A stretch of DNA of 11,881 nt from a virus (Duplodnaviria > Heunggongvirae > Uroviricota > Caudoviricetes). A program made the translations under genes and the position numbers. The stretch is from IMG/VR virus record IMGVR_UViG_2579778791_000016, positions 1 to 11,881 of that record; one strand, 5' to 3'. Every line of letters begins with the position of its first letter. Position 1 is the stretch's first letter. Shown in pieces: positions 1-11,881 of the stretch. A model generated the notes under the pieces. The model was not told the DNA's origin. It was given only the letters and a program-made list of their open reading frames with translations, and made no database searches.

Positions 1-199
1 CCTCATAGTCGTCTTCGCTATCGCCATCAGGCACATCGTTTTTACTTCTCCTCAGATACGATATGTAAAAATCGCGCCAGGCATCCAGATCCAGTTGCCC
101 TCGCTTATTCGATATCGGGGCACCCGGCAATTTCTGCAATCTGCGAAGCTGGCGATCGGTCAGACTTAAATGCCTGGCAACTTCAGTCTGCGTAGCCAC
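1..199 (-). CDS. Terminase small subunit (Nu1-like), N-terminal part only; the gene continues beyond the window start
   Basis: Minus-strand frame opens with GTG at 199..197 preceded by an AGGTGAGGA Shine-Dalgarno and an in-frame TGA. Translation (M)ATQTEVARHLSLTDRQLRRLQKLPGAPISNKRGQLDLDAWRDFYISYL has the winged-HTH pattern of lambda Nu1 (lambda: KKQLADIFGASIRTIQNWQEQGMP). The start lies about 185 nt from cosN, as in lambda. Not in the ORF track because it runs off the window. Confidence 0.5.
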   Translation of the reverse strand, partial: MATQTEVARHLSLTDRQLRRLQKLPGAPISNKRGQLDLDAWRDFYISYLRRSKNDVPDGDSEDDYE

Positions 200-246
200 T
201 CCTCACCTCGCAAAAACTCTCACCTCACAATCACAACAAAACCGGT

Positions 247-345
247 CATGTCCGGTTTACATGTCTGTTTTTTGTTCATGTCCGGTTCACAGAAGACCTG
301 TTTTTATATTTTTCATATAGTTAACTTGAAGAGAAACCGGACATG
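247..345. other. cosB-like terminase binding region: three copies of the 11-mer CATGTCCGGTT (247-257, 277-287 direct; 335-345 inverted) between cosN and the terminase small-subunit start
   Basis: Exact 11-nt repeat seen three times, two direct and one inverted. The position and arrangement mirror the lambda R-sites, but the sequence differs from lambda cosB. Confidence 0.5.
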
Positions 346-382
346 GATCCCGGAAAATTTTCATAAATAGCGAAAACCCGCG

Positions 383-394
383 AGGTCGCCGCCC
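383..394. other. cosN cohesive-end site (12-nt GGGCGGCGACCT on the minus strand)
   Basis: Minus strand reads GGGCGGCGACCTCGCGGGTTTTCGCTATTTATGAAAATTTTCCGG, matching the lambda left end as recalled for about 45 nt. The flanking 400-560 region also resembles the lambda right end (e.g. TTTACGTTAAGTTGA...ATCAATTAAT). Confidence 0.65.
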
Positions 395-905
395 CGTAGC
401 CTGCCGGATCGCCGGAAAGGACCCAATAAAATGATAATAATTATCATTTATATAAATACCATCACACATCCCACGTACACCATAAAACCACGACAAATAA
501 TCAATTTTGTCCAAGTCATGCATTAATTGATCTGTGTCAACTTAACGTAAAGACATCTTAAGACAATACAAATCAGCAGCACTGAACACGGAAAAACACA
601 ATGTCATCAAAAAATAAAGCTTCCCAAACCAGATGATTAATCAAATCCATATTGCCCTTGAACGTAAGGGATCGGGTAATTTTTCGGCATGGGTTATTGA
701 AGCCTGCAGGAGAAGGCTGGCAACAAATGCAAAGCACCTGCGCCCGGCCAGCATGAAAAATAACGAGAAATGAACGTTCGGTTACAGGAACCGGTAGCTA
801 CTGTCTTCTAACAATATTTCATCTTCATATCCGGCGAAACAAGACTTTACCCTGCAGGGATGTACTGAATAGCAACAGAGTGATAATTAACTTCTGATAA
901 AATAA

Positions 906-1232
906 TCAGGGTGCTGAAGGACTAAAGATAAATGTTTTCTTCACGCCTTTACGCGGCTTGTCCTTCTCAAATCGCCATTTTGCCATCGCCTTTACAACCT
1001 GCTCATCAAACAGATGGTGCGGCTCTGAACGGATAAACTCAATTCGGGTGACAGTACCATCAGCACCAATATCAAACTTCACATCAACCCGTCCCTTTAT
1101 ATAATTTGCCGCGGCATAGGCCGGATATTGTGGTAATGCCTTAACCAACTGTCGAGGCATATCTGTTTTATGTTGCGTACAGCCCATAACCAAAGAAGAC
1201 AACAAAATAATTAACGGAAGATTTCTTTTCAT
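906..1232 (-). CDS. Lipoprotein with a TonB C-terminal-like domain (accessory gene)
   Basis: ORF 906..1247. Probable start is the ATG at 1232 (MKRNLPLIILLSSLVMGC, a signal peptide with lipobox and Cys) preceded by GGGA. The C-terminal half YPAYAAANYIKGRVDVKFDIGADGTVTRIEFIRSEPHHLFDEQVVKAMAKWRFE fits the TonB_C pattern (YP..A...GxV.V.F.I...G.V..I.I..S.....FD..V..A...WRF). The alternative ATG at 1247 has no Shine-Dalgarno. Confidence 0.6.
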   Translation of the reverse strand: MKRNLPLIILLSSLVMGCTQHKTDMPRQLVKALPQYPAYAAANYIKGRVDVKFDIGADGTVTRIEFIRSEPHHLFDEQVVKAMAKWRFEKDKPRKGVKKTFIFSPSAP

Positions 1233-1252
1233 TTTTATTCCCGGCATAGATA

Positions 1253-1269
1253 AGAATAAGTCTTATTCT
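1253..1269. promoter_or_regulatory. Perfect 8-1-8 inverted repeat AGAATAAG-T-CTTATTCT in the 5' leader of the TonB-like gene; candidate operator
   Basis: Seen directly in the sequence, 21 nt upstream of the ATG at 1232. The AT-rich hexamer-like arms are loosely reminiscent of a Fur box but are not a match. Confidence 0.3.
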
Positions 1270-1907
1270 AACAATGCAGCCCTGTCGGTCATCAATCCTC
1301 TGCTTAATGGCAATGACAATTATCCGACTTAAATCACAAATCAGACACATGACATAACAGAGCTTGCGAGGTAACACATCGTCCGGTTTCTTCCACCATC
1401 GCACCGGACCAGCGACCATGAGGGGACAACGCCGCGCTCCGTTAACACGGTAAACCCCGGTGTGTATCGTTTTTGATTATCCCCGCACACTCGCGCAGAG
1501 GAGTCTCCCTCTCGGGCTGTGGTCTCTGTTGATGCGGGAATACGGCGACGATACAGTGCATAGTTATGTCAGGCTAAAATGCCTTTATCAAATCTGGGTA
1601 ACGCAATCTGCCATTGTTGGCTCCGGTTGTGGTGATGATGTCAAGCAAGCCCATCTTGACTATCTCAACTAGTCGATTCATGACATATGTCACATTTATA
1701 CCAACCAGATCATTGCGTTGAGTTTACAACTCAATAATTCTTGGTTGGACGTCAAGTTTTGACGGTATTCGGGTGGCAGTTGATAGCAATCTTGGAACCG
1801 TCCACCTAATAGCTGCTTGTGTGGCGTTTAAATTGTGGAGTGCTCGCAACAGAACTTTTCTTTCTTGTTTGCGAGCGATGTTTAGCAACTTTTAAGAGAG
1901 TTAAGTC

Positions 1908-2138
1908 ATGGAGTTTTTGAAAGAGCATCATTTGCCTTCAATAATTTTTGGAATTTTTTCCGCCATTTTTTGGATTATTTCATGTTTTGCATCTTCCAAA
2001 GAACACCCACCAAAAACGGAACAAGGCAGTTTCTCATCACTGGGTTGTTTTAAAGCCATTGAAATACAAAGTAAATGGAATAAACGGGCTGCTTTTTGCG
2101 CAGCGTTAGCTGTTCTTGCTCAAGTATTTAGCTTTTAG
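1908..2138 (+). CDS. Small membrane protein of unknown function (76 aa), opposite strand to the late operon
   Basis: ATG start with a weak GAGAG Shine-Dalgarno, hydrophobic segment LPSIIFGIFSAIFWIISCFA, and a strong intrinsic terminator immediately downstream. AT-rich. Occupies the position and orientation that bor has in lambda but is unrelated to Bor. Confidence 0.4.
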   Translation: MEFLKEHHLPSIIFGIFSAIFWIISCFASSKEHPPKTEQGSFSSLGCFKAIEIQSKWNKRAAFCAALAVLAQVFSF

Positions 2139-2155
2139 TTTCAAAAGTGTAAATC

Positions 2156-2192
2156 AGAACCACTCGTATAGCGGGTGGTTCTCTGTTTTATT
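2156..2192 (+). terminator. Intrinsic terminator (11-bp stem, 5-nt loop, then CTGTTTTATT); probably bidirectional, also ending the late lysis transcript
   Basis: AGAACCACTCG/TATAG/CGGGTGGTTCT hairpin with one G-U pair. The plus strand has a T-run after it; the minus strand has a partial U-run (UGAUUUACACUUUUG). Confidence 0.55.
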
Positions 2193-2254
2193 CGTGTTGC
2201 GACTAAAACTAACTAAAATCACGCATATGAAAGATAATGGGAAAATTATCGCTA

Positions 2255-2692
2255 TCATCGAAGGCATTGCGTCCTAATGTACTCCTGCAAGTAGTTAACC
2301 TGCGCGGTTATCCTGTCGATTCCACTTCGGAGACGGTAATAATTGAGTTCAGCATCTGCTGTAAGTCCTGGGGTTTCTCCATTGCCCATGCCGCTGGCTC
2401 CGGTCGTTGACTTTGCACAGGTGGCGGCGACTTGCAGGCGCTTACGCCCAGCAGAAACATCAGCACGGAGACTTTCGATAGTCGCATTAGCATCAGCAAG
2501 CTCCTTTGTGTATCTGGCGTCAAGTTCTGCTACATCACGTTGCCGCTTCTGCATATCAGCGATGATGGATGTGGCTTTATCGCGCTGCTCTTTGTAGGCG
2601 ATGGCGTTATCACGGTAATGATTAACAGCCCATGAAAGGCAGACGATGAGGCAGATGACCAGAACGTAGATAATCGCGGTTACTCTGCTCAT
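2255..2692 (-). CDS. Rz: Rz i-spanin (inner-membrane spanin subunit)
   Basis: Translation [31 protein letters not shown]...[11 protein letters not shown] is close to lambda Rz as recalled. The start ATG at 2692 overlaps the R stop (ATGA). The ORF-track start at 2704 is four codons upstream. Confidence 0.85.
2308..2493 (-). CDS. Rz1: Rz1 o-spanin lipoprotein, embedded in the +1 frame of Rz
   Basis: [41 protein letters not shown]... has a lipobox plus a proline-rich stretch like lambda Rz1 (VVGCTSK...PPPPPAW). Lies wholly inside Rz in another frame. Start chosen at the ATG at 2493; ATGs at 2487 or 2523 are alternatives. Confidence 0.75.
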
Positions 2693-3186
2693 TGTTGCCC
2701 CCACAAACAGACTTCACGCTCAATCTCACGGCGAGTCATCAGCCCTTTCCATTGCTTACCGCCAGCGTATGTCCAGCGCCGTAGCTGATCACATGCGCCT
2801 TTGATATCGCCCTGGTTTATTTTGCGAAGAAGCGTCGATGTTCTGAAATTGCCAGCGCCCACGTTGTAAACGAACGAGTAAAGAGCGCCGCGCGTTGTTT
2901 CCGGTATATCGACGTTGATGTACGGGTTTATTTGTCTGGCGACCGTGGCAAGGTCTTTATTCAGGAGGGCTTTGCATTCTGCTTCGGTATACGTTTTACC
3001 GGGCATGATGTCTTTTCCGGTGTGTCCGTGACATACAGTCCATACGCCAACGATATCTTCGTATGGTATGTAGCTGACACCTTCCAGGCCATCGTCACCA
3101 CTCGGACCAGTGATGAGCACAGACGCTATGGCAACAGCCCCACCACCAATAGCAGCAGCAACAGCCTTGCGTAATGACGGCGACAT
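2689..3186 (-). CDS. R: SAR endolysin (phage-21-type lysozyme with N-terminal signal-anchor-release domain)
   Basis: [30 protein letters not shown]... has a Gly/Ala-rich SAR helix followed by a lysozyme domain, and is near-identical to phage 21 R as recalled. Start overlaps the S stop (TAATG). Confidence 0.9.
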
Positions 3187-3392
3187 TATTCACCTCTCGC
3201 AGCCTTACGCTTATCTTCTTTAATCTTGAAATAAAGGTTTGTCAGATACGTCAGCAGGCCAAACAGCAGACTCCCCAGCACACCTATTGCCACCCACTGG
3301 GACGGAGAGACTTTGTCCAGCAGCTGCAGTAACCAGTATCCCGTCCCCACCGCTGACGTGGTGTATGACACACCTGTTGTGATTTTTTCCAT
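3186..3392 (-). CDS. S: Pinholin (class II holin, S21-like)
   Basis: [68 protein letters not shown] has two transmembrane segments and a basic C-terminus, closely resembling S21-68. GGAG Shine-Dalgarno 10-14 nt upstream. No in-frame upstream start, so no dual-start antiholin is apparent. Confidence 0.85.
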
Positions 3393-3435
3393 CTGATGTA
3401 TGTCTCCGTCACCGCCGACAGAAAATGAAAGTAAA

Positions 3436-3473
3436 GAAAAACAAAAAAGCCGCCAGTGTCACCCACTGACGGC
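3436..3473 (-). terminator. Intrinsic terminator 44 nt upstream of the holin start codon
   Basis: Minus strand GCCGUCAGUG-GGUGA-CACUGGCGGC (10-bp stem with one U-G pair) followed by UUUUUUGUUUUUCUUU. Confidence 0.6.
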
Positions 3474-3648
3474 CAACGCCGGGAGCCGTGATTATGGCAT
3501 TCAGGCTCTGCTAAAAATGCCAGATAACATTCCGGCCAACCCCTGATTCAGGTTATAAATGACACAATATCTTGACAACATCCGTCACTGTCTGTCAGAA
3601 AATGTACTGCCAAGTATAAGTATCATGTGAAGTACATCTACCCGTTTT

Positions 3649-3684
3649 AGCCAGCGTCCTTCAGAGTGGGCGCTGGCTTTTTTT
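3649..3684 (+). terminator. Plus-strand-specific intrinsic terminator abutting the nanS-p stop codon, antisense to the late operon
   Basis: Plus strand AGCCAGCG-(12-nt loop)-CGCUGGCU followed by UUUUUUUAUUAU. On the minus strand the same hairpin is preceded by an A-run and followed by AAAACGGG, so it should not terminate late transcription. Confidence 0.5.
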
Positions 3685-3685
3685 A

Positions 3686-5536
3686 TTATGCTGCCGGTGC
3701 ATTTATCTCCAGCACCAGACTTTCTATCTCAACACCATACGCTGCATTTTTGGTAATATCCGTCAGCGTCAGCGCATTCAGCCCCAGTGTCAGACTGTCT
3801 TTTATGACCTGGAATGCCGGGCCAGCCACTCCATTCAGTTTCGGAGTAACCGTGGCACTGCCGGCGGTGAACACCAGCTCCAGCGTCTGCCAGTCGTTAC
3901 CGTAATCGCCGAACTCCCCCAGCTTCGTGTTTCCGGCTTTCCTGTGATGCATCAGATTCACTCTGCCGTCAGTGGTCTGAGTGAAGTGCGACATCAGGAA
4001 CGGATTACCGGTACCCGTCATCGCCACACCATCAGGAACGGGAGCGTCCGTATACAGATAAATCCCCAGCCCGAACTGATTGTTGGTCAGTGCGCCTGAG
4101 AGGCGGAACTTACAGGTCAGTCTGCCGCCCTGTGTCAGCAGGGTAATTGCGTCATCCACCGGATGCATCAGGGACCAGGTTTTATTGCTCTGCTTGGTGA
4201 TCTTAAATACACCATCTGACAACTGAATTCCGCCGTCCTTAATGGTCCAGCCCTGCGCAGCAGCATCTCCGGCTGTCGGCATCAGGGAGATTGTGCGTAT
4301 GGATGCATCTTCAGACGGCCCCGATGGCGTGTTGCCGCCGGGCGAGGGTTTGATTTCCGGTGCCTTACCACTGATGAAGGCTGAGGTGCGCCCGGCTGCG
4401 TTCAGAATAGCGGTTGCCAGACGATCCGGAATAATGCTCCTGCGCGCCCATGAACTGAAATGTGTCGGGCGGTTTGATGATACCTGGTTTCCATTCGTTC
4501 TCGATGCCGCACCGTAATATCCTGATGCCGGAATATCCGGATCTTCTGCCGGCGCGTTAGTGGCGGTATTGACGCCGTTACCGTCTGTCATGAAGGGCAC
4601 AAAATAAACGCCCTCACTCTCCCTGTTTTTATACCCGCCGTACACGGTGTCGTACTGGGTAGCGTATGTATTTTTCCAGTAATACGTCGTGTCACCACAA
4701 ACCCACGGCACATCTGCAGCACTGCCACCATGACACTGCGCGTTAAACACAGAGAGGTCAGCACGAAACTGCGTCAGCATGGCTGTAAACAGCGCAGGTT
4801 GCTGTGCGTAGGTGGCGGCGCTCATGTCAAACTCACCCTGCATCCAGCAGACGGCCAGCAGAACGTTTTTGGGATTTTTCTGCAATGCCGCTTTTGTGCG
4901 GGAAATCAGATCCTGATATAACGGCTTGCCCACCCCCCAGCGTGCCGAATCCTGACTGGCCCCCGTGGACTCGCTGAATGTCCCCTCCGCGCCCTGGGTA
5001 AATGCCGAACCACCACGACAGCATGGTACCAGCAGGATCCCCGCGTTATTCGGGATATACGGGAGCAGTTTTTTGGCAATATGTAAACCCTGACCGACAC
5101 AGCCGTACTGCCCTTTGCTCAGGTCAGCCCTCGGATGATTCAGCGTACTCATATCCTGCACATCATGCAGACAGTGGTCAGCCGGAATAATATCGTTATA
5201 TCTGCAGGCAGCCCCGCCCGGCGTCACTGTACTGCGGCGCGCCAGCTGTTTAATGCGCGGATCCGGAGCATCGTATGAATCCGGCAGCGGAAGCCCTTCA
5301 CCGTAAGCCATGGCATTGGACTGCCCGGCCAGTACGATGACGTAGTACCAATCCGGCTCAGATGAAGGGCCGACCTGTGCCTCTCCTTCAATAGCCACCG
5401 CCTGCATCAGTGTGTACGGCGTAATGGCAACCGGTCCGCCGTATGGCTGCCAGCCCTCTTTCAGTTTGTGTGTCAGCTTTTCCGCAAGGTCTGACGGCGA
5501 CGCCGCCCTGACAACATCGTAATGTTTAATCGACAT
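3686..5536 (-). CDS. nanS-p: Prophage sialate 9-O-acetylesterase (NanS-p / YjhS-like; N-terminal DUF1737-like region plus SGNH/SASA esterase domain)
   Basis: 616-aa ORF with ATG at 5536 and GGGAGA Shine-Dalgarno. Contains the SGNH block-I motif VIVLAGQSNAMAYGEG. Sits immediately upstream of the lysis cassette, as the nanS-p genes of Stx and related lambdoid prophages do. Confidence 0.75.
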   Translation of the reverse strand: MSIKHYDVVRAASPSDLAEKLTHKLKEGWQPYGGPVAITPYTLMQAVAIEGEAQVGPSSEPDWYYVIVLAGQSNAMAYGEGLPLPDSYDAPDPRIKQLARRSTVTPGGAACRYNDIIPADHCLHDVQDMSTLNHPRADLSKGQYGCVGQGLHIAKKLLPYIPNNAGILLVPCCRGGSAFTQGAEGTFSESTGASQDSARWGVGKPLYQDLISRTKAALQKNPKNVLLAVCWMQGEFDMSAATYAQQPALFTAMLTQFRADLSVFNAQCHGGSAADVPWVCGDTTYYWKNTYATQYDTVYGGYKNRESEGVYFVPFMTDGNGVNTATNAPAEDPDIPASGYYGAASRTNGNQVSSNRPTHFSSWARRSIIPDRLATAILNAAGRTSAFISGKAPEIKPSPGGNTPSGPSEDASIRTISLMPTAGDAAAQGWTIKDGGIQLSDGVFKITKQSNKTWSLMHPVDDAITLLTQGGRLTCKFRLSGALTNNQFGLGIYLYTDAPVPDGVAMTGTGNPFLMSHFTQTTDGRVNLMHHRKAGNTKLGEFGDYGNDWQTLELVFTAGSATVTPKLNGVAGPAFQVIKDSLTLGLNALTLTDITKNAAYGVEIESLVLEINAPAA

Positions 5537-5620
5537 CGAATTTCTCCCGTGTAGAGGAACAGAGTTAAAAAGCCGGAAGCGGAATCAAATCACAGGATGA
5601 CCATCTGCCAGTGGCAGGTC

Positions 5621-5649
5621 ATAAAAAAAAGGCTGCGCAATGCGCAGCC
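5621..5649 (-). terminator. Strong intrinsic terminator upstream of nanS-p; likely 3' end of the upstream cargo unit
   Basis: Minus strand GGCUGCGCA-UU-GCGCAGCC followed by UUUUUUUUAU. Confidence 0.65.
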
Positions 5650-6078
5650 AGAACTCACAAGGAAAATGATAAAAGGAATAACACTAGTGATGTACGCATG
5701 GCGCCTCCCGCTAAGTTCTGCAATGATCAAACAGAACTCGCTACGTGCCCTTAAAACTCGATCATTTAGCCCCTCCAAGGAGGATTCACCATGCGGTTGA
5801 TTTTTTAATAAACAGTAAACAAAAAAGTCAAGAATTATTCATTCTGTTCTTTCATCATCGGCCACAGCAATACCACAATGCCGCAGACCAGAGCGCCATC
5901 AGTCAGTACCAACATTATCCTGCTGGTGAAATCCATCATCACCATCACTAAAAGCAGGATCACAACAGCAAGCAGACACAGTTTATAAAACAATGTTCAG
6001 AAAACGCATTCAGCATGCCTAAGGTTCTATTCCTACGAATAGCCAACTTGCAACTTAAAATATTATTTATGCAGCCAA

Positions 6079-6795
6079 TTAAATTCTGGTCCTTACAATA
6101 TCAACCTGAAGATTCTTATCTTGTGCTGATTGATAAATGACAAACCTTTTACTACCTGCATTGAAAGAAGTAGACAAAACCAGACAATTATCATAACGAG
6201 CAAGAACATAATACCAACCATCATTATAATTAATCATTTCATATTCTTTCTTAAACTGTGGTTTGTAATATCCTGTCAGAAATGAAAAAAGCCAAAAATA
6301 TGCCACAAAAGCAATCATCACAATCTCAAAAAAATGTTTTTTTATAAATGGCTTATCATAGAAGCATGATACCGATAAAAATCGCCCATAAGATCTTATC
6401 GAAATTGTAACCGCCAGCGCAATCGCTGCTGACAGTAGCAAAAGAGGTACCTGAATCTTCTGTCTCAATATAGAAAACTCAATAATTGCCGGCACAAACA
6501 ATAATTCCACAGCAAAATAAAGGCGAAATACATTTAGCTCTTGCATAGAATGTTTTCTTTTCACTGCGAAAAAGAATACAACACCAATACCCCAACCGAT
6601 AAGAAATATAGCAATGACGATAACTGCAAAAAATAAACTTCTGGCAACATCATCAACACCTGCACCTACAATCCACCATGGGAAGCCGTAGTAAAAAGAA
6701 GTACCCCATCCATAGAAATAAGCACTCCCCCATCCAAGGCATCCCATGTAGGCAATAAAAAGTGAAGAACTCCTGAGCAGCGCACCATCCTTCAT
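6079..6795 (-). CDS. Uncharacterised polytopic membrane protein (about 5 predicted transmembrane helices plus a roughly 65-aa C-terminal soluble domain); AT-rich cargo gene
   Basis: Only long ORF in a markedly AT-rich block (track 6079..6837). Hydrophobic segments include LFIAYMGCLGWGSAYFYGW, LFFAVIVIAIFLIGWGIGVVFFFAV, FRLYFAVELLFVPAIIEF, LLLLSAAIALAVTISI and IVMIAFVAYFWLFSFLTGYY. Probable start is the ATG at 6795 (MKDGALL..., GGGGTGG upstream), because the first ATG at 6837 lies inside a promoter-like -10 element. No recognisable family. Confidence 0.6.
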   Translation of the reverse strand: MKDGALLRSSSLFIAYMGCLGWGSAYFYGWGTSFYYGFPWWIVGAGVDDVARSLFFAVIVIAIFLIGWGIGVVFFFAVKRKHSMQELNVFRLYFAVELLFVPAIIEFSILRQKIQVPLLLLSAAIALAVTISIRSYGRFLSVSCFYDKPFIKKHFFEIVMIAFVAYFWLFSFLTGYYKPQFKKEYEMINYNDGWYYVLARYDNCLVLSTSFNAGSKRFVIYQSAQDKNLQVDIVRTRI

Positions 6796-6832
6796 AACCA
6801 CCCCAATACAAGATGATAACATTGGCTTACAA

Positions 6833-6862
6833 CTCATAACAAAAGCAATTCAATGCCGTCAA
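6833..6862 (-). promoter_or_regulatory. Candidate sigma70 promoter of the membrane-protein cargo gene (TTGACG-N18-TATGAG)
   Basis: -35 TTGACG at 6862..6857, -10 TATGAG at 6838..6833, between the Q-proximal terminator and the gene. Judged by eye only. Confidence 0.3.
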
Positions 6863-6933
6863 GAGGTTACAGGCTAAAAAAACTCTATTACATAGCAGCC
6901 AGCATGTTTACCGTACAAGTACAACTCAGGGCA

Positions 6934-6961
6934 TAAAAAAAACCCACTCGGCAGCGGGTTT
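6934..6961 (-). terminator. Intrinsic terminator about 45 nt downstream of the Q stop codon (candidate tR')
   Basis: Minus strand AAACCCGCU-GCCG-AGUGGGUUU (G-U wobble in stem) followed by eight U. The plus strand also has a partial T-run after the hairpin. Confidence 0.65.
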
Positions 6962-6994
6962 ATACATTTTTTACAACATACCAAATTTGCATGA

Positions 6995-7023
6995 AGTATA
7001 TGGCTTTTAATCCAGTTTTGCAA
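6995..7023 (-). promoter_or_regulatory. Near-consensus sigma70 promoter overlapping the 3' end of Q (candidate late promoter pR' with qut)
   Basis: TTGCAA (7023..7018) - 17 nt - TATACT (7000..6995) on the minus strand. The Q stop codon (7009..7007) lies inside the spacer. A -10-like TGGTATGTT sits in the initial transcribed region. Confidence 0.45.
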
Positions 7024-7696
7024 TATTTTGCTGTAAAAATGCTGCCTTTTGTTTTGAACGTGTTCTCGTCACAAGCAATAAAGCATCACTATCAAGCTGT
7101 AGAAAAATGTGCTTCATTGCAACCCAGCGTTCAGTAAATGTCTCGGACCAGTTTTTTGTTGTCACTCCCACCAATGATGCCAGTGTCTGGTATTCATAGG
7201 CCTCACGCCCTGCAAGTTCGCTCTTCACATCCTGTGCAGCCAGCCAGATTAACGTCTTCAGGCGATCCAGTGTCTTACCTGCAATTTTTCTGTTACTTAA
7301 CAAATCTTTAAACTCGCTCCATGCCCATTGCGTTATGGTGACCTGATGCCCCCATCGAACGCTTTCGCTGTAACACCAAAGCAACCATGCTTTCTGATGT
7401 TCATCGAGAGACAAAACCGCGCGGCGCCATGAAGAGGTTGAGAATTCAACCGGGCTGACCAAAGCAATGGATGAACCTTTTGCGTACGACTGCTTACCGG
7501 AAGTCGGCGTATTATCCCGCGTAATCATCTTGCCAGTTACCACATCCAGAATGCGCGGCTTCTTTCGTTTGTATGTACCAGTATCAAATTGTGCATGCTC
7601 CTGCCAGGCTTCGAGCTGGCCTTTCGTTGCTCCGTTCAAGTCAGCAGTAGCTGCCATAAGTTGCTCACGAACATACTGTAAATATTGGGTATTCAT
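7007..7696 (-). CDS. Q: Q-like late antiterminator (long-form Q family, about 230-250 aa)
   Basis: Positioned after ninI and before the late/lysis genes, with a promoter and terminator at its 3' end. Start taken at the ATG at 7696 (MNTQYLQYVREQ..., AGGA Shine-Dalgarno 8 nt upstream) rather than the track start at 7780. Family assignment rests on context and size, not on recognised motifs. Confidence 0.5.
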   Translation of the reverse strand: MNTQYLQYVREQLMAATADLNGATKGQLEAWQEHAQFDTGTYKRKKPRILDVVTGKMITRDNTPTSGKQSYAKGSSIALVSPVEFSTSSWRRAVLSLDEHQKAWLLWCYSESVRWGHQVTITQWAWSEFKDLLSNRKIAGKTLDRLKTLIWLAAQDVKSELAGREAYEYQTLASLVGVTTKNWSETFTERWVAMKHIFLQLDSDALLLVTRTRSKQKAAFLQQNIAKLD

Positions 7697-8172
7697 GCAG
7701 TAAATCCTTTCTATATTTTGGCATAATTCTTCAACATTCGGTAATCGTTCAAAACCGAATCGGGGAAACGACATAAGCACAGGAGCCCCCAGCGACAGCG
7801 AAGGAGTTCTGATATATAAGACTCAGACATCATTCATTCCCCGGTTCTCCAATATCTGTTTCACTCATCATCCATAACTACCTGTAATTGCCCCCCCTTT
7901 TTTTGTAACAGTTCTTATATTGCTATATAGAATAGCCATTACTAATGCATTTAAATTTAATAAAATAAAAATTATAAAAAAACATAAAACACCACGCAAA
8001 CACACTTAATAAAAACACCGTTACATTAAAAGATAATAAAAACCACAATAAAAAACAAATAAATCAATTGTCTCACGCAATTATAAAACATCATATTGAT
8101 TACGCACCTTGTATTACAAACTCATGTATGTAAAATACGCGCACCATTCAAAAAAAAGGAAGACAATAACAT

Positions 8173-9132
8173 ATGAAAAAAAGTGTCATCGCTGGCGTCT
8201 TTATTGCTCTGTCATTTACCACGTGTTCAGCTATCGCGAACAGCCTTGCATTATCATTAGCAAATGATGATGCAGGGAAGTTTCAACCAATACTTAATGA
8301 TATTTATGGCAATAAACATGAAAACAGAGATGATTACTCACAAGGCTTATTTCTGGGATATAGCCACGATATCTCAGACTCGAGCCAATTATCTCTCCAT
8401 ATTGCGCAAGATATTTACTCTCCATCAGGCAGTAATAAAAGACACAACACAGCCGTAACTGGAGACAGAGCTTTTAGTGCATACACTCACACTGGTATTG
8501 AATGGAACTCCCTTGCGAATGACTGGATTCGCTATCGATTAGGTACTGACATAGGTGTTGTTGGCCCCGACGCAGGCGGTCAGAAAGTACAAAATAAAGC
8601 TCATGAGATTATTGGGGCAGAAAAATATCATGCATGGGATGATCAAATAGAGAATCGCTACGGTTATACTGTAAAAGGGATGCTATCCATGACACCAAGT
8701 ATGGATATTTTAGGTGCTAATGTTGGATTATACCCTGAAGTTTCTGCTGTTACTGGAAACTTATTTCAATATGTAGCATATGGCGCAACCATTGCCATTG
8801 GTAATGATAAAACCTTCAATTCGGATAATGGCTTTGGTCTGCTGGCTCCCCGTGGTTTAATGCATATGTCCGATACAAGCGGATTCAAATACAAGATTTT
8901 TGCAGGTATGGAAAGACGAGATGTCAATCGCAACTATACTCTCGAAGGAAAAACAATACAGACGAAACAAACAACAGTATCGCTAAACAAAACTGTTGAT
9001 GAATATCAAGTTGGCGCAACAATTGGGTATGCACCTGTAGCCTTCACACTAGCATTTAATAAAGTAACATCAGAATTCAAGACAGGGGATGACTATTCAT
9101 TTATAAATGGAGCAATCACCTTCTTTTTTTAA
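8173..9132 (+). CDS. lpxR: Outer-membrane beta-barrel protein, probably lipid A 3'-O-deacylase LpxR family
   Basis: Signal peptide MKKSVIAGVFIALSFTTCSAIA, predicted mature size 296 aa (the size I recall for mature LpxR), C-terminal aromatic beta-barrel signature ...GAITFFF, AAGGAAG Shine-Dalgarno. AT-rich gene with a long AT-rich upstream region, opposite in orientation to the flanking phage genes. Confidence 0.55.
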   Translation: MKKSVIAGVFIALSFTTCSAIANSLALSLANDDAGKFQPILNDIYGNKHENRDDYSQGLFLGYSHDISDSSQLSLHIAQDIYSPSGSNKRHNTAVTGDRAFSAYTHTGIEWNSLANDWIRYRLGTDIGVVGPDAGGQKVQNKAHEIIGAEKYHAWDDQIENRYGYTVKGMLSMTPSMDILGANVGLYPEVSAVTGNLFQYVAYGATIAIGNDKTFNSDNGFGLLAPRGLMHMSDTSGFKYKIFAGMERRDVNRNYTLEGKTIQTKQTTVSLNKTVDEYQVGATIGYAPVAFTLAFNKVTSEFKTGDDYSFINGAITFFF

Positions 9133-9161
9133 CTGAATTGAATTCAATCAAAATAACATAA

Positions 9162-9214
9162 GTCCAACAAAAACATAAAGTGCGAAATGAATGCCAGCTC
9201 CATTTATTTCGCAC
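9162..9214 (-). terminator. Intrinsic terminator in the ninI-lpxR convergent intergenic region (minus-strand orientation)
   Basis: 14-bp stem GUGCGAAAUGAAUG/CAUUUAUUUCGCAC (one G-U pair) with a 7-nt loop, followed on the minus strand by UUUAUGUUUUUGUUGG. Confidence 0.5.
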
Positions 9215-9343
9215 TATAAAAGATTAAAAGTTGCAATAAAATAATAAAATGACTCAGTTACGAAAACCAATAAACTGTGGCCAGTAGTGAGTCGCTCATC
9301 ATCGGGCTTTTTGGCGAATGAAATTTAGCTACGCTTTCGAGTC

Positions 9344-10009
9344 TCATGCGCCTTCTCCCTGTACCTGAATCAATGTGAGGTTTCCGCAGAACACTGCGCC
9401 AGTATCGATATACATCTGGTTGGCAAATTTGAGTGGTTTCACTGCTGGCGTATGACCAAAGATGAACGTGTCCGCGCCTTTGATTTCTTTCACGATCCCG
9501 TCTTGTGAGTTGCTGATTCGTTCGCGGTTCCAGATTACCTGCTGATGATCAACTGGCTTTCCAAACTCGTATTTATCACAAGGATAATCGGCGTGGCAAA
9601 TGACATATTTTTTATCTTTGCTCACCAGTTCGATGATTAACGGAAGTTCTTCTGCTTTATGGGCAAGAACTTTAGCCAGAGTCTCTTTGTCGTAATCGAG
9701 ATTAAAGAACCAGCCACCGCCATTAAGCAGCCAGTGATTAACGTTTCCACGCTCTGATAAGCCATCAATCATCATTTGCTCATGGTTTCCACGCACAGCT
9801 CTGAACCAGGGGAATGTGATTAATTCCAGACATTCGACGTTCTCTGTACCGCGATCAACCAAATCGCCAACCGAGATGAGCAGGTCTTTTTTGGTGTCGA
9901 ATCCAATCGTATCCAGTTTGTTCATCAGGTTCGTGTAGCATCCGTGCAGGTCGCCAGCTACCCAAATATTTCGGTATTTGCTGCCATCAATTCTTTCGTA
10001 GATATTCAT
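9344..10009 (-). CDS. ninI: Ser/Thr protein phosphatase (lambda NinI / lambda-PPase homologue)
   Basis: 221 aa with metallophosphatase motifs GDLHG, GDLVDRG and GNHE; near-identical to lambda phosphatase as recalled. Start overlaps the ninG stop (ATGA). Confidence 0.9.
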
Positions 10010-10620
10010 GCAGCCTCACTTCTGCTGTTTCGCAGGTCTTTGAGTTTCTGTTGGTACTCTGCCTTGATCGCCTTGCACTCTTCGACAGTCCAGCGATGGC
10101 GGTTATGGTTTGATTCGATTTCGTCTACTGCTTCCTGCCTGATGCGGCTAATCAGTTCGACGCGATACGGAACGAGATTTCCGCTTTTGTGCTGGTTGCA
10201 CACCACGCATTGCTTGTGAATATTGCGTTCATCAAATCGGAGTTGAGGTGCCGCAGCAGTTGTCCGGTAATGTCCGGCATCCCACTGAGCAGACGTGAGC
10301 GTTCCGCACGAGATACATGGTAAGTCGCGGTCTCTTTCTCTGATGAAGGCGTTTACGGCTTGTTGGGCTTGTTTAATCCAGTAACTGCGGGGCTTTAAGG
10401 CGAGTTTTCGAATCTTAAGTTTATCTTTCTGTTTCTGCTCCTCTCGTCGTCGTTTCTTCTCTGCTGCTTTTTCCGCTTTTTCGCGTTCTTTACTTCGTCG
10501 TTCGAGTGCTATCTTGGTTCCACACTCTGGAGAGCACCACCACTGATTAGCGAATGCAGGGTGAAACCATTCCCGACATTCATCGTTTTTACATCGTCTT
10601 CGCGCTGGTTTAGCCATCAT
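10006..10620 (-). CDS. ninG: NinG / Rap recombination-associated protein
   Basis: 204 aa, [34 protein letters not shown]...; near-identical to lambda NinG as recalled. Confidence 0.9.
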
Positions 10621-10780
10621 CTTCTTCCTCGTGCATCGAGCTATTCGAATCGCTCATCAGCTCTGCACAGCAGTGCTCACACACGTGAACTTCCAGCACA
10701 TGCAGCTTCTGACCGCAATTAGCGCACGTTAAAGCCCGCTCGACGCTTTCTTGTTCGTAACTTCGATTTGGGTCAATCAC
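10610..10780 (-). CDS. ninF: NinF
   Basis: ...[43 protein letters not shown]...EEEDDG matches lambda NinF. Probable GTG start at 10780 overlaps the ninE stop (GTGA); the track ORF extends upstream to 10822. Confidence 0.8.
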
Positions 10781-10959
10781 CTTGTATTCCTCGCACGATG
10801 TCTTAGCCACCGGATATCCCACAGGTGAGCCGTGTAGTTGAAGGTTTTTACGTCAGATTCTTTTGGGATTGGCTTGCGTTTATTTCTGGAGCGTTTCGTT
10901 GGAAGGTATTTGCAGTTTTCGCAGATGATGTCGGTGAAACTTCGTCGTTGTCGCCTCAT
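10777..10959 (-). CDS. ninE: NinE
   Basis: 60 aa, [60 protein letters not shown], near-identical to lambda NinE. ATG overlaps the upstream stop (ATGA). Confidence 0.85.
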
Positions 10960-11415
10960 GTCGCCCTCCTGACGCCCTGCCCGATCGCCATCAATGCCGC
11001 TTTGGATACGATAGTAAACATCCGTCGAGGACTAATGAACGGTCGCCAAATCAGCAGCATGGAGCCTTTGCTGTTTCCCTTCTTCTCCAGCCCTGTCGAT
11101 GGTTCGATAAAATTAATCCGTCCATCAGTGATAATACGAACTTCGTCAACACTCTCCAGAGCCTTGCTGAACCATCCGACAGACATATCCTCTGGCACAA
11201 GCATCACTACCGTCTGTCGCTGTTGTATGCACTGCTCAGCGGCTTTTTCCACCCACGGCCTGATATTGCTGTACGGTGGGTTATTCCAGATTGCACCGTG
11301 GCTTATCCACTCAGAATTTAGCGCGTCGTCAGCCTCAGTTAGCCAGTGAGCGCACAGAGCGTTTTTGTCGCTCGCTGCCGAATCCAGCCAGAATCCAAAC
11401 TCAATATCCAGTGCA

Positions 11416-11866
<451 letters not shown>

Positions 11867-11881
11867 TTTATGGTCACTTTT

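Follow-up and report, generated by a model that had tools for sequence, protein, structure and literature searches.

The DNA considered here is a stretch of 11,881 nucleotides (nt) from a virus of the class Caudoviricetes, namely positions 1 to 11,881 of the IMG/VR record IMGVR_UViG_2579778791_000016, referred to below as the window. The element in question lies at its left end and consists of a cohesive-end site (cos) followed by the beginning of a gene for a small terminase subunit (TerS). The cos is read on the minus strand, the orientation of the window being opposite to that of the lambda map, and the junction of the lambda right and left ends aligns with window positions 480-1 on that strand. 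In the reading favoured here, which we hold to be quite probable from sequence comparison, positions 200-424 (minus strand) correspond to the cos of a lambda-like Escherichia coli prophage and positions 1-199 to the DNA-binding domain of its TerS, the packaging mechanism proposed below and a separate packaging specificity being included. The type of site is in itself ordinary, as variation in cosB and in the TerS recognition helix on a shared cosQ and cosN is already established for lambda, phage 21 and N15/Monarch, and occurs likewise in phage-inducible chromosomal islands (PICIs) by means of Rpp (PMC4669245, PMC9026076, PMC6739421). Base-pair (bp) numbers below are given on the lambda scale, where bp 1-12 are the cohesive end.

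Organisation of the cos region and of the TerS gene

In the first instance, the nicking site and its surroundings are those of lambda. A previous sequence-only reading of this DNA had counted about 45 nt around cosN in common with lambda, and the alignment gives 48 identical nt out of 48 (window 397-350, bp -3 to +45), a block that comprises the cosN flanks, the I2 region and the predicted 12-nt cohesive-end sequence GGGCGGCGACCT (cosN core, 383-394, minus strand). The latter is equal to lambda bp 1-12 and invariant in the 37 natural cos variants aligned, which derive from 263 relatives of the TerS in IMG/VR representing 41 distinct cos variants, four rearranged ones having been set aside. The I2 site for integration host factor (IHF) annotated in phage 21 corresponds here to bp 30-44 (window 365-351). 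Further upstream, cosQ (GGGTCCT, 418-424, minus strand, bp -30 to -24) has the sequence and spacing found at lambda 48473-48479, none of its 7 columns varies in the 37 variants, and it falls within a stretch labelled 'R4' in the phage 21 record M81255; the role of cosQ is in packaging termination (PMC4669245). The region to the left of cosQ is mosaic among E. coli variants. With cosQ included (424-418), identity to lambda amounts to about 91% across 104 nt, and the similarity ends at bp 46-49, directly ahead of the first cosB repeat. As judged from the sequence, all the elements of a lambda-like cos are present, i.e., a 12-nt cohesive end, a cosQ about 30 bp upstream of the nick site and a complex cosB. 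The interval originally delimited, 247-394, holds the repeats and the cohesive end and falls short on both sides, where it omits cosQ and the terS start at position 199.

Beyond the block shared with lambda, the exact 11-mer CATGTCCGGTT occurs three times inside 99 nt, two copies being direct and one inverted as the sequence-only reading had it. The copy equivalent to R3 (335-345, minus strand, bp 50-60) shows no variation at its 11 columns among the 37 variants; that equivalent to R2 (277-287, plus strand, thus inverted respective to R3, bp 108-118) varies at 2 of 11, and the third exact copy, in the R1 region (247-257, plus strand, in the orientation of R2, bp 138-148), at 1 of 11. Since only about 0.006 occurrences of one given 11-mer are expected by arithmetic in 2 x 11,881 nt, chance is excluded as the origin of the three copies. 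The centres of R3 and R2 are 58 bp apart. A degenerate copy with a single mismatch (CATGaCCGGTT, 240-250, minus strand, in the orientation of R3, bp 145-155) overlaps the third exact copy and forms with it the 20-bp palindrome AAACCGGACATGACCGGTTT; it has the orientation of lambda R1 and is the sole copy of the R1 region so oriented. In this respect the picture has to be corrected, as the third exact repeat is not in the arrangement of lambda R1: whereas the latter lies about 44 bp from R2 in the orientation of R3, the repeat here lies 30 bp from R2 and shares its orientation. Owing to its lack of conservation in relatives, a copy with two mismatches at 260-270 was not counted as a site.

Between R3 and R2 lies a putative IHF core, TAACTATATGAAA (311-323, minus strand, bp 72-84), which matches the I1 site of lambda and phage 21 in position and partially in sequence, and which is followed by an A/T-rich tract extending to about bp 94 (window 301). 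As read from the sequence, 7 of the 9 specified positions of WATCAANNNNTTR are matched on the other strand, a number equal to that of lambda I1, and 3 of the 26 columns of this I1-like region vary among the 37 variants.

The terS gene starts with a GTG codon at position 199 (bp 196, minus strand), a Shine-Dalgarno sequence (GAGGTGAGGAG) being found directly upstream, and runs off the window after its 66 N-terminal codons (1-199), i.e., the DNA-binding domain. The same start is annotated by RefSeq in a genome bearing a 100% identical 480-nt stretch, where the complete TerS counts 169 amino acids (aa) and is followed by genes for the large terminase, head-tail joining, portal, protease, decoration and capsid proteins. 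The placement of terS is thus Nu1-like, directly downstream of cosB and upstream of a gpA-type gene, the large-subunit gene being beyond the window and seen in the identical genome. The large terminase of this identical prophage shares 66% identity with gpA, in keeping with the unchanged cosN. Only residues 73-164 of TerS align with lambda Nu1 (46% identity by BLASTP) and residues 59-164 with N15 gp1 (43%), and the Pfam family Phage_Nu1 (PF07471) is matched well above threshold (67.9 bits for a cut-off of 30) at profile positions 62-163 only, i.e., in the C-terminal part. BLAST detects no similarity to Nu1 in the N-terminal 55-60 residues; PHROG 57 (terminase small subunit) nonetheless matches the full length of the protein, and its N-terminal part alone with an E-value of 1.6e-10. 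From an alignment of 23 sequences, AlphaFold assigns a predicted local distance difference test (pLDDT) of 85-91 to residues 1-55, with a strand, helix 4-10, helix 15-22, a loop and helix 38-54. According to this model, the N-terminal domain is a winged helix-turn-helix (HTH) of the lambda-TerS/Rpp/MerR type, different from but homologous to that of Nu1, so that the earlier suggestion of an N-terminus unlike Nu1 and yet with an HTH pattern appears well founded. Neither a PDB sequence search nor NCBIfam gave a match, and the protein cluster to which this TerS belongs (819 members) is named only 'terminase small subunit' or 'Nu1-like'. Open reading frames spanning cos (170-370, plus strand; 287-523, minus strand) were rejected, as RefSeq annotates nothing there in the identical genome.

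Pairing of cosB repeats with a class of DNA-binding domain

Alignment with the cos regions of lambda and phage 21 reveals a shared architecture with different R sequences. Respective to lambda, cosQ and the cosN block are identical, R3 and R2 have corresponding coordinates with R2 inverted and an I1-like site in between, TerS starts at bp 196 instead of bp 191 and the domain has the same fold. In lambda, R3 is located at bp 50-65 (PMC9026076), the I1 core at bp 75-87 (own count), R2 at about bp 109-125 in inverted orientation, and R1 further downstream in the orientation of R3. The differences reside in the R sequence, CGTTTCC(G/T)TTCT in lambda versus CATGTCCGGTT here, in the position of R3, which begins 3 bp nearer cosN here, in the arrangement of R1 and in the DNA-binding domain, which cannot be aligned by BLAST and lies outside the Pfam Nu1 match. 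As such, neither CGTTTCC(G/T)TTCT sites nor the lambda recognition helix SIRTIQNWQE are found at this locus.

The likeness to phage 21 covers cosQ, the 12-nt cohesive end and the coordinates of the cosB elements, which are annotated in M81255 as R3 (bp 50-65), I1 (bp 72-86), inverted R2 (bp 107-122) and R1 (bp 150-165, in the orientation of R3). The I1 cores read TAACTATATGAAA here, TAACTTAATGTTT in lambda and TAACTTTTTGTTT in phage 21. The R1/R2 core of phage 21, CATGTCGG, is also similar to CATGTCCGG here; the latter, however, contains one extra base, and the 3' half of the site is GGTT instead of GRCC. Phage 21 gp1 aligns with this TerS only from residue 64 (40% identity). The marks of the phage 21 specificity, namely (C/T)(A/G)TGTCGG(T/A/G)(A/C)C sites and the helix DPRTIERWQS, are absent despite the similar core. 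In the alignment of recognition helices, the counterpart in this TerS is TDRQLRRLQK (residues 14-23), where R19 and K23 occupy the positions that set specificity between the two phages, i.e., Q20 and E24 in lambda and E20 and S24 in phage 21 (PMC4669245).

N15/Monarch, as a further specificity on a lambda-like cosN, offers a third comparison. It differs in its R sequence (GGTTGTTGTTT) and in its domain class (MAVLLNKSD...), Monarch being represented here by the Escherichia albertii loci L008 and L009, and neither GGTTGTTGTTT sites nor a domain start of the type MA(V/F)LLNKSD occur in the window. In N15 itself, R3 lies at bp 48-60, with no I1, no R1 and no R2 upstream of terS (PMC9026076, PMC4669245). 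The same division into complex and simple cosB is met among relatives of the domain described here. Simple-cosB relatives have a single upstream R site, begin TerS at bp 76-80 and carry within terS, at bp 248-261, an inverted AACCGGAA that encodes (E/K)-P-E within an otherwise variable acidic linker. This intragenic copy, about 170-181 nt after the terS start, occurs in L092, L173, L174, L175, L091, L190, L254, L301 and L302; the accessory site rR2 proposed for N15 is located at bp 249-260 (PMC4669245). Complex-cosB members (this window, P0021 and P0023) are without an intragenic copy, as reported for Monarch.

Several lines of evidence link the repeats with this class of domain. Among the 37 cos variants, 3 of the 33 repeat columns are variable versus 18 of the 32 columns in the two spacers (Fisher p = 5e-5, for related sequences whose columns are not independent). 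In the Escherichia albertii / Escherichia sp. loci L008 and L009, the TerS is chimeric, its C-terminal 100 residues being nearly identical to those of the present TerS, and the N-terminal part being an N15/Monarch-type domain (MAFLLNKSD...) accompanied by a cosB with GGTTGTTGTTT repeats in forward, inverted and forward orientation. As the same C-terminal part is joined there to another domain together with another repeat, cosB and DNA-binding domain are exchanged as one module, the boundaries of which are placed by sequence comparison at bp 46-49 and about residue 55-67. In a sample of 80 IMG/VR loci with the exact lambda-cosN 19-mer ACGGGGCGGCGACCTCGCG, 61 sites had a recognisable adjoining TerS, namely 40 with R3 and domain of the lambda class, 13 with CATGTCCGGTT and a MATQ-type domain, four with both of the N15/Monarch class and four with both of the phage 21 class. 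The class of R3 agrees with that of the domain in 61/61 sites, without any mixed combination, a match that is supporting rather than decisive for a recognition pair, since cosB and domain are about 130 bp apart and linkage alone could give it. At this comparative level, the altered pair of cosB and small subunit on a conserved nicking site, as put forward by the sequence-only reading, finds support.

The association also holds across genera. Homologue searches with the 66-aa domain yielded E. coli fragments only, a related-locus search of genome contigs four loci, two of which carry a TerS truncated by an insertion sequence (IS), and a related-locus search with the family alignment the same E. 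coli copies only. More distant relatives came from a HMMER scan with the domain over 1.84 billion representatives, with 44 proteins at E <= 0.001, of which about 25 are TerS-sized and start MATQxEVAxHLdLSDRQvRnL. Across genera, domain relatives are 54-64% identical, and the nearest, P0021, has the same recognition helix except for D15E. The DNA upstream of the terminase was read in 705R4 (E. coli), phiARM81ld and PCAh2 (Aeromonas), Y8 and LPPA33 (Pseudomonas), the IMG/VR loci L190 and L254 and the metagenomic sequences P0021, P0023, P0024, P0025 and P0026. In these relatives it contains CAT(G/T)TCCGGTT or yATTTCCGGTTCCGGT in every case where cosQ allows the end to be located, and the TCCGGTT core then lies at about bp 53-62. 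The record of phiARM81ld begins at GGGCGTTAGACC, which puts the core at bp 56-62 versus bp 54-60 in this window. In P0021, the cohesive end is N15-like and the spacers defy alignment, yet ATGTCCGGTT stands at bp 51-60 and AACCGGACATG at bp 108-118, in the very places they have in this window; P0023 has CAyTTCCGGTT in forward, inverted and forward orientation at about bp 52, 110 and 143 (own reading). In both, the inverted copy lies about 58 bp downstream, though the remaining cosB is unalignable. At the places of R3 (bp 51-60) and R2 (bp 108-118), the divergent relative L297, with unalignable spacers, has ATGTCCGGTT and AACCGGACATG, respectively, and the relative L299 has CACTTCCGGTT in the lambda-R1 orientation at about bp 143-153 (own reading) once its cohesive-end call is corrected. 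The 14-mer TTTCCGGTTCCGGT is not by itself diagnostic in a large collection, since only 2 of its 80 matches adjoin a TerS of this class, the rest being mostly due to chance.

Some further observations were made alongside. R sites look related across classes when CGTTTCCGTT of lambda (bp 53-62), CGTGTCGGTA and CATGTCGG of phage 21 and CAT(G/T)TCCGGTT of the present family are compared. Other R3-region sequences, e.g., ATCAGATCCGTTCTTCTTC, follow the exact lambda cosN 19-mer in L431, L449, L474 and L460, from which it follows that more cosB classes exist than have been described. Along P0022, a protein of 2465 aa, 19 separate stretches match the 66-aa domain (E 1e-16).

Proposed mechanism and competing explanations

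The mechanism of this cos/TerS unit can be inferred by homology with lambda and phage 21, which applies to TerS binding, the IHF bend, nicking and exclusivity alike. Dimers of the small subunit would insert the recognition helix of the N-terminal winged HTH (TDRQLRRLQK) into the CATGTCCGGTT sites, and IHF would bend the I1-like site, which would allow joint binding of R3 (bp 50-60) and the inverted R2 (bp 108-118), accessory binding being contributed by the third copy and its palindrome (bp 138-155). So bound, the small subunit would anchor the gpA-like large subunit on the lambda-identical cosN, where nicks staggered by 12 nt would be introduced; packaging would run from cosN via cosB into the terminase and head genes, and cosQ would act in terminating it at the next cos. 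Neither the R sites nor the recognition helix are those of lambda, phage 21 or N15/Monarch, and for this reason the unit most probably sets a packaging specificity of its own on a nicking site that is shared.

Besides the linkage already mentioned, several points weigh against this reading. The R1 region is arranged otherwise than in lambda, and CCGGTT was not found upstream of the terminase in the more divergent relatives P0037, P0029 and Roseobacter CRP-811, for which another specificity would account. The phage records with this cos and TerS (PhiR12) are not linearised at cos, and the prophage copy in the window, where its head and tail genes are not seen, may be defective. The R core CATGTC(C)GG resembles CATGTCGG of phage 21, and the N15 terminase packages lambda DNA (PMC4669245), for which reasons exclusivity cannot be assumed. 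As such, architecture and function could be as described with a specificity that is not separate, cross-packaging with phage 21 or lambda being full or one-way. The single inserted base that distinguishes CATGTCCGG from the phage 21 core, the resemblance of the family variant CATTTCCGGTT to lambda R3 (CGTTTCCGTT), the presence of TCCGGTT in lambda at bp 41-47 and the documented asymmetry of N15 acting on lambda DNA (PMC4669245) all speak for such an overlap. It is nonetheless judged unlikely, as the recognition helices differ at most positions, both known specificity positions included, as the one-base insertion shifts the register of the site and as none of the 61 sampled sites mixes classes; moreover, PICIs pair this cosB with a cos of another class, which suggests that the classes are not interchangeable.

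Still less probable is that the window contains a relic cos of a defective prophage that no longer packages, with repeats persisting through recent divergence only. Defects are common among the lambdoid prophages of E. coli, degraded relatives of this one do exist (the IS3-truncated L006 and L007, the L086 deletion, the replaced R1 flank of L021 and L025), and the E. coli copies are all closely related, which makes conservation statistics weak when taken alone. However, from bp 1 to the terS start the window is identical to the commonest intact variant, the 100% identical genome has intact genes for TerS, TerL, portal, protease, decoration and capsid proteins, spacers have diverged where repeats have not, and the same class is found in the PhiR12 phage genomes. 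That the repeats act mainly on transcript or transcription, i.e., as late-mRNA hairpins, terminators or operators and not as terminase sites, is the least credible explanation. On the minus strand, CCGG-containing repeats do build two terminator-like hairpins (258-239 and 353-337), but two matches are within the shuffle expectation of 1.2 +/- 1.1, no promoter-like site appears in 200-430 and no Rfam family matches the window. Hairpins would further leave unexplained why the distance to the cohesive end is constant, why about 58 bp separate the repeats across an IHF-like site and why the core is retained beside the domain in distant phages.

Natural occurrence, PICIs and the remainder of the window

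With respect to natural occurrence, at least 80% of the 480-nt cos and TerS stretch is held by 1147 of 5426 complete E. coli genomes (about 21%), and in INPHARED this cos and TerS were found in 5 of 50,697 phage records, namely PhiR12_1 to PhiR12_5; the class is thus common in nature and almost unstudied. In the PhiR12 genomes, the cosB region is 96% identical with all three repeats intact, and an absence of the repeats from related phages, which the sequence-only reading had named as telling against it, is therefore not what is seen. Their host fields, K-12 MG1655 and E. coli C, suggest propagation on indicator strains, and no paper on the PhiR12 phages was found in the literature searches. 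Likewise, the literature searched contains no description of a cosB class with CATGTCCGGTT, subscription papers (e.g., the 2015 Virology paper on N15) being outside that search. Among natural variants, L086 lacks precisely the segment between R2 and R1, a loss consistent with unequal crossing-over between direct repeats and hence with the step proposed by Feiss for the origin of simple cosB. In L021 and L025, the sequence after R1 is replaced, including the degenerate copy, and L012 has an 18-nt deletion in the leader. In the degraded prophages L006 and L007 (Shigella flexneri and E. coli), an IS3-family insertion cuts short a TerS of this class at about residue 68.

This cosB is also carried by PICIs. 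In a scan for CATGTCCGGTT-N(40-55)-AACCGGACATG, the spacer was 47 nt in every match, and 72 matches had cosN just upstream, 61 of them followed by this TerS and 11 without it, the latter sitting in PICIs with two convergent cos sites. In strain CFT073 (NC_004431.1; L430, 11037-11840), the PICI concerned is EcCICFT073, which is flanked by roxA and phoQ and encodes int, a regulator, a primase, SSB, PerC, a capsid-like and a decoration-like protein. Of its two convergent cos sites, one precedes rppA and its cosB is unrelated to that of this window; the other carries the R3 (CATGTCCGGTT), I1, R2 and R1 (at 10/11) of the window, with 79% identity over bp -40 to +160 and no terminase gene after it. 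The arrangement recurs in 81 of the 5426 genomes. For EcCICFT073, a phage cosB was reportedly not identifiable and cos2 proved dispensable for transfer by lambda and phi80, which were the helpers tested besides the resident inducing phage 4 (PMC6092414, PMC6739421); the copy of this window's type may be the published cos2. In a second type of PICI (STEC2018-607; L429, 13001-13670; L310, 4131-4800), found in 11 genomes at tRNA-Pro with int, primase, SSB, PerC, capsid-like and decoration-like genes, a cosB of the Monarch/N15 type converges with that of this window and no rpp is present. Two further loci with dual cos, L440 (3796 and 4678) and L450 (2363 and 3245), combine a site of the GGTGGTGGTGG/GGTGGTGGTGGTTTTGTTG type with a phage 21-like site (GCATGTCGG). 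It may be a general trait of PICIs to combine cosB sites of different classes.

A wider proposal can be advanced tentatively, its chances being put at somewhat below even. CATKTCCGGTT sites together with the 'MATQxEVAxHL' TerS domain would constitute a separate specificity beyond lambda, phage 21 and N15/Monarch; the class would have switched between a complex cosB (R3-I1-R2-R1) and a simple one (R3 with an intragenic inverted copy) in parallel to Monarch/N15, and PICIs of the EcCICFT073 family would carry this cosB as their second cos. Were this true, helpers of this class could package EcCICFT073-type PICIs directly, without Rpp, and a dual cos would mean a dual helper range.

Packaging specificity governs which cellular DNA enters phage heads, and several lambdoid prophages and satellites with a common nicking site are often found together in pathogenic E. 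coli. The interest of the class lies in its prevalence and lack of study, in the pairing of R site and domain across genera and in the link to the second cos of PICIs, for the EcCICFT073 type of which it supplies a testable explanation and hence an indication as to which prophages can mobilise them. A known R site with its recognition helix also provides a further natural case for how winged-helix small terminases read DNA, as well as a second, independent pair of complex and simple cosB on which the Feiss model of cosB evolution can be tested.

The rest of the window (633-11817) is a lambdoid late region, in which no stx genes, no tRNA genes and no Rfam match were found. Under the names given by RefSeq in the identical genome, it includes, on the minus strand, a SASA-family esterase (3686-5536), a holin (3186-3392), a lysozyme (2689-3186), an Rz-like lysis protein (2255-2692) and a TonB-family lipoprotein (906-1232), and, on the plus strand, a DUF3950 protein (633-773).

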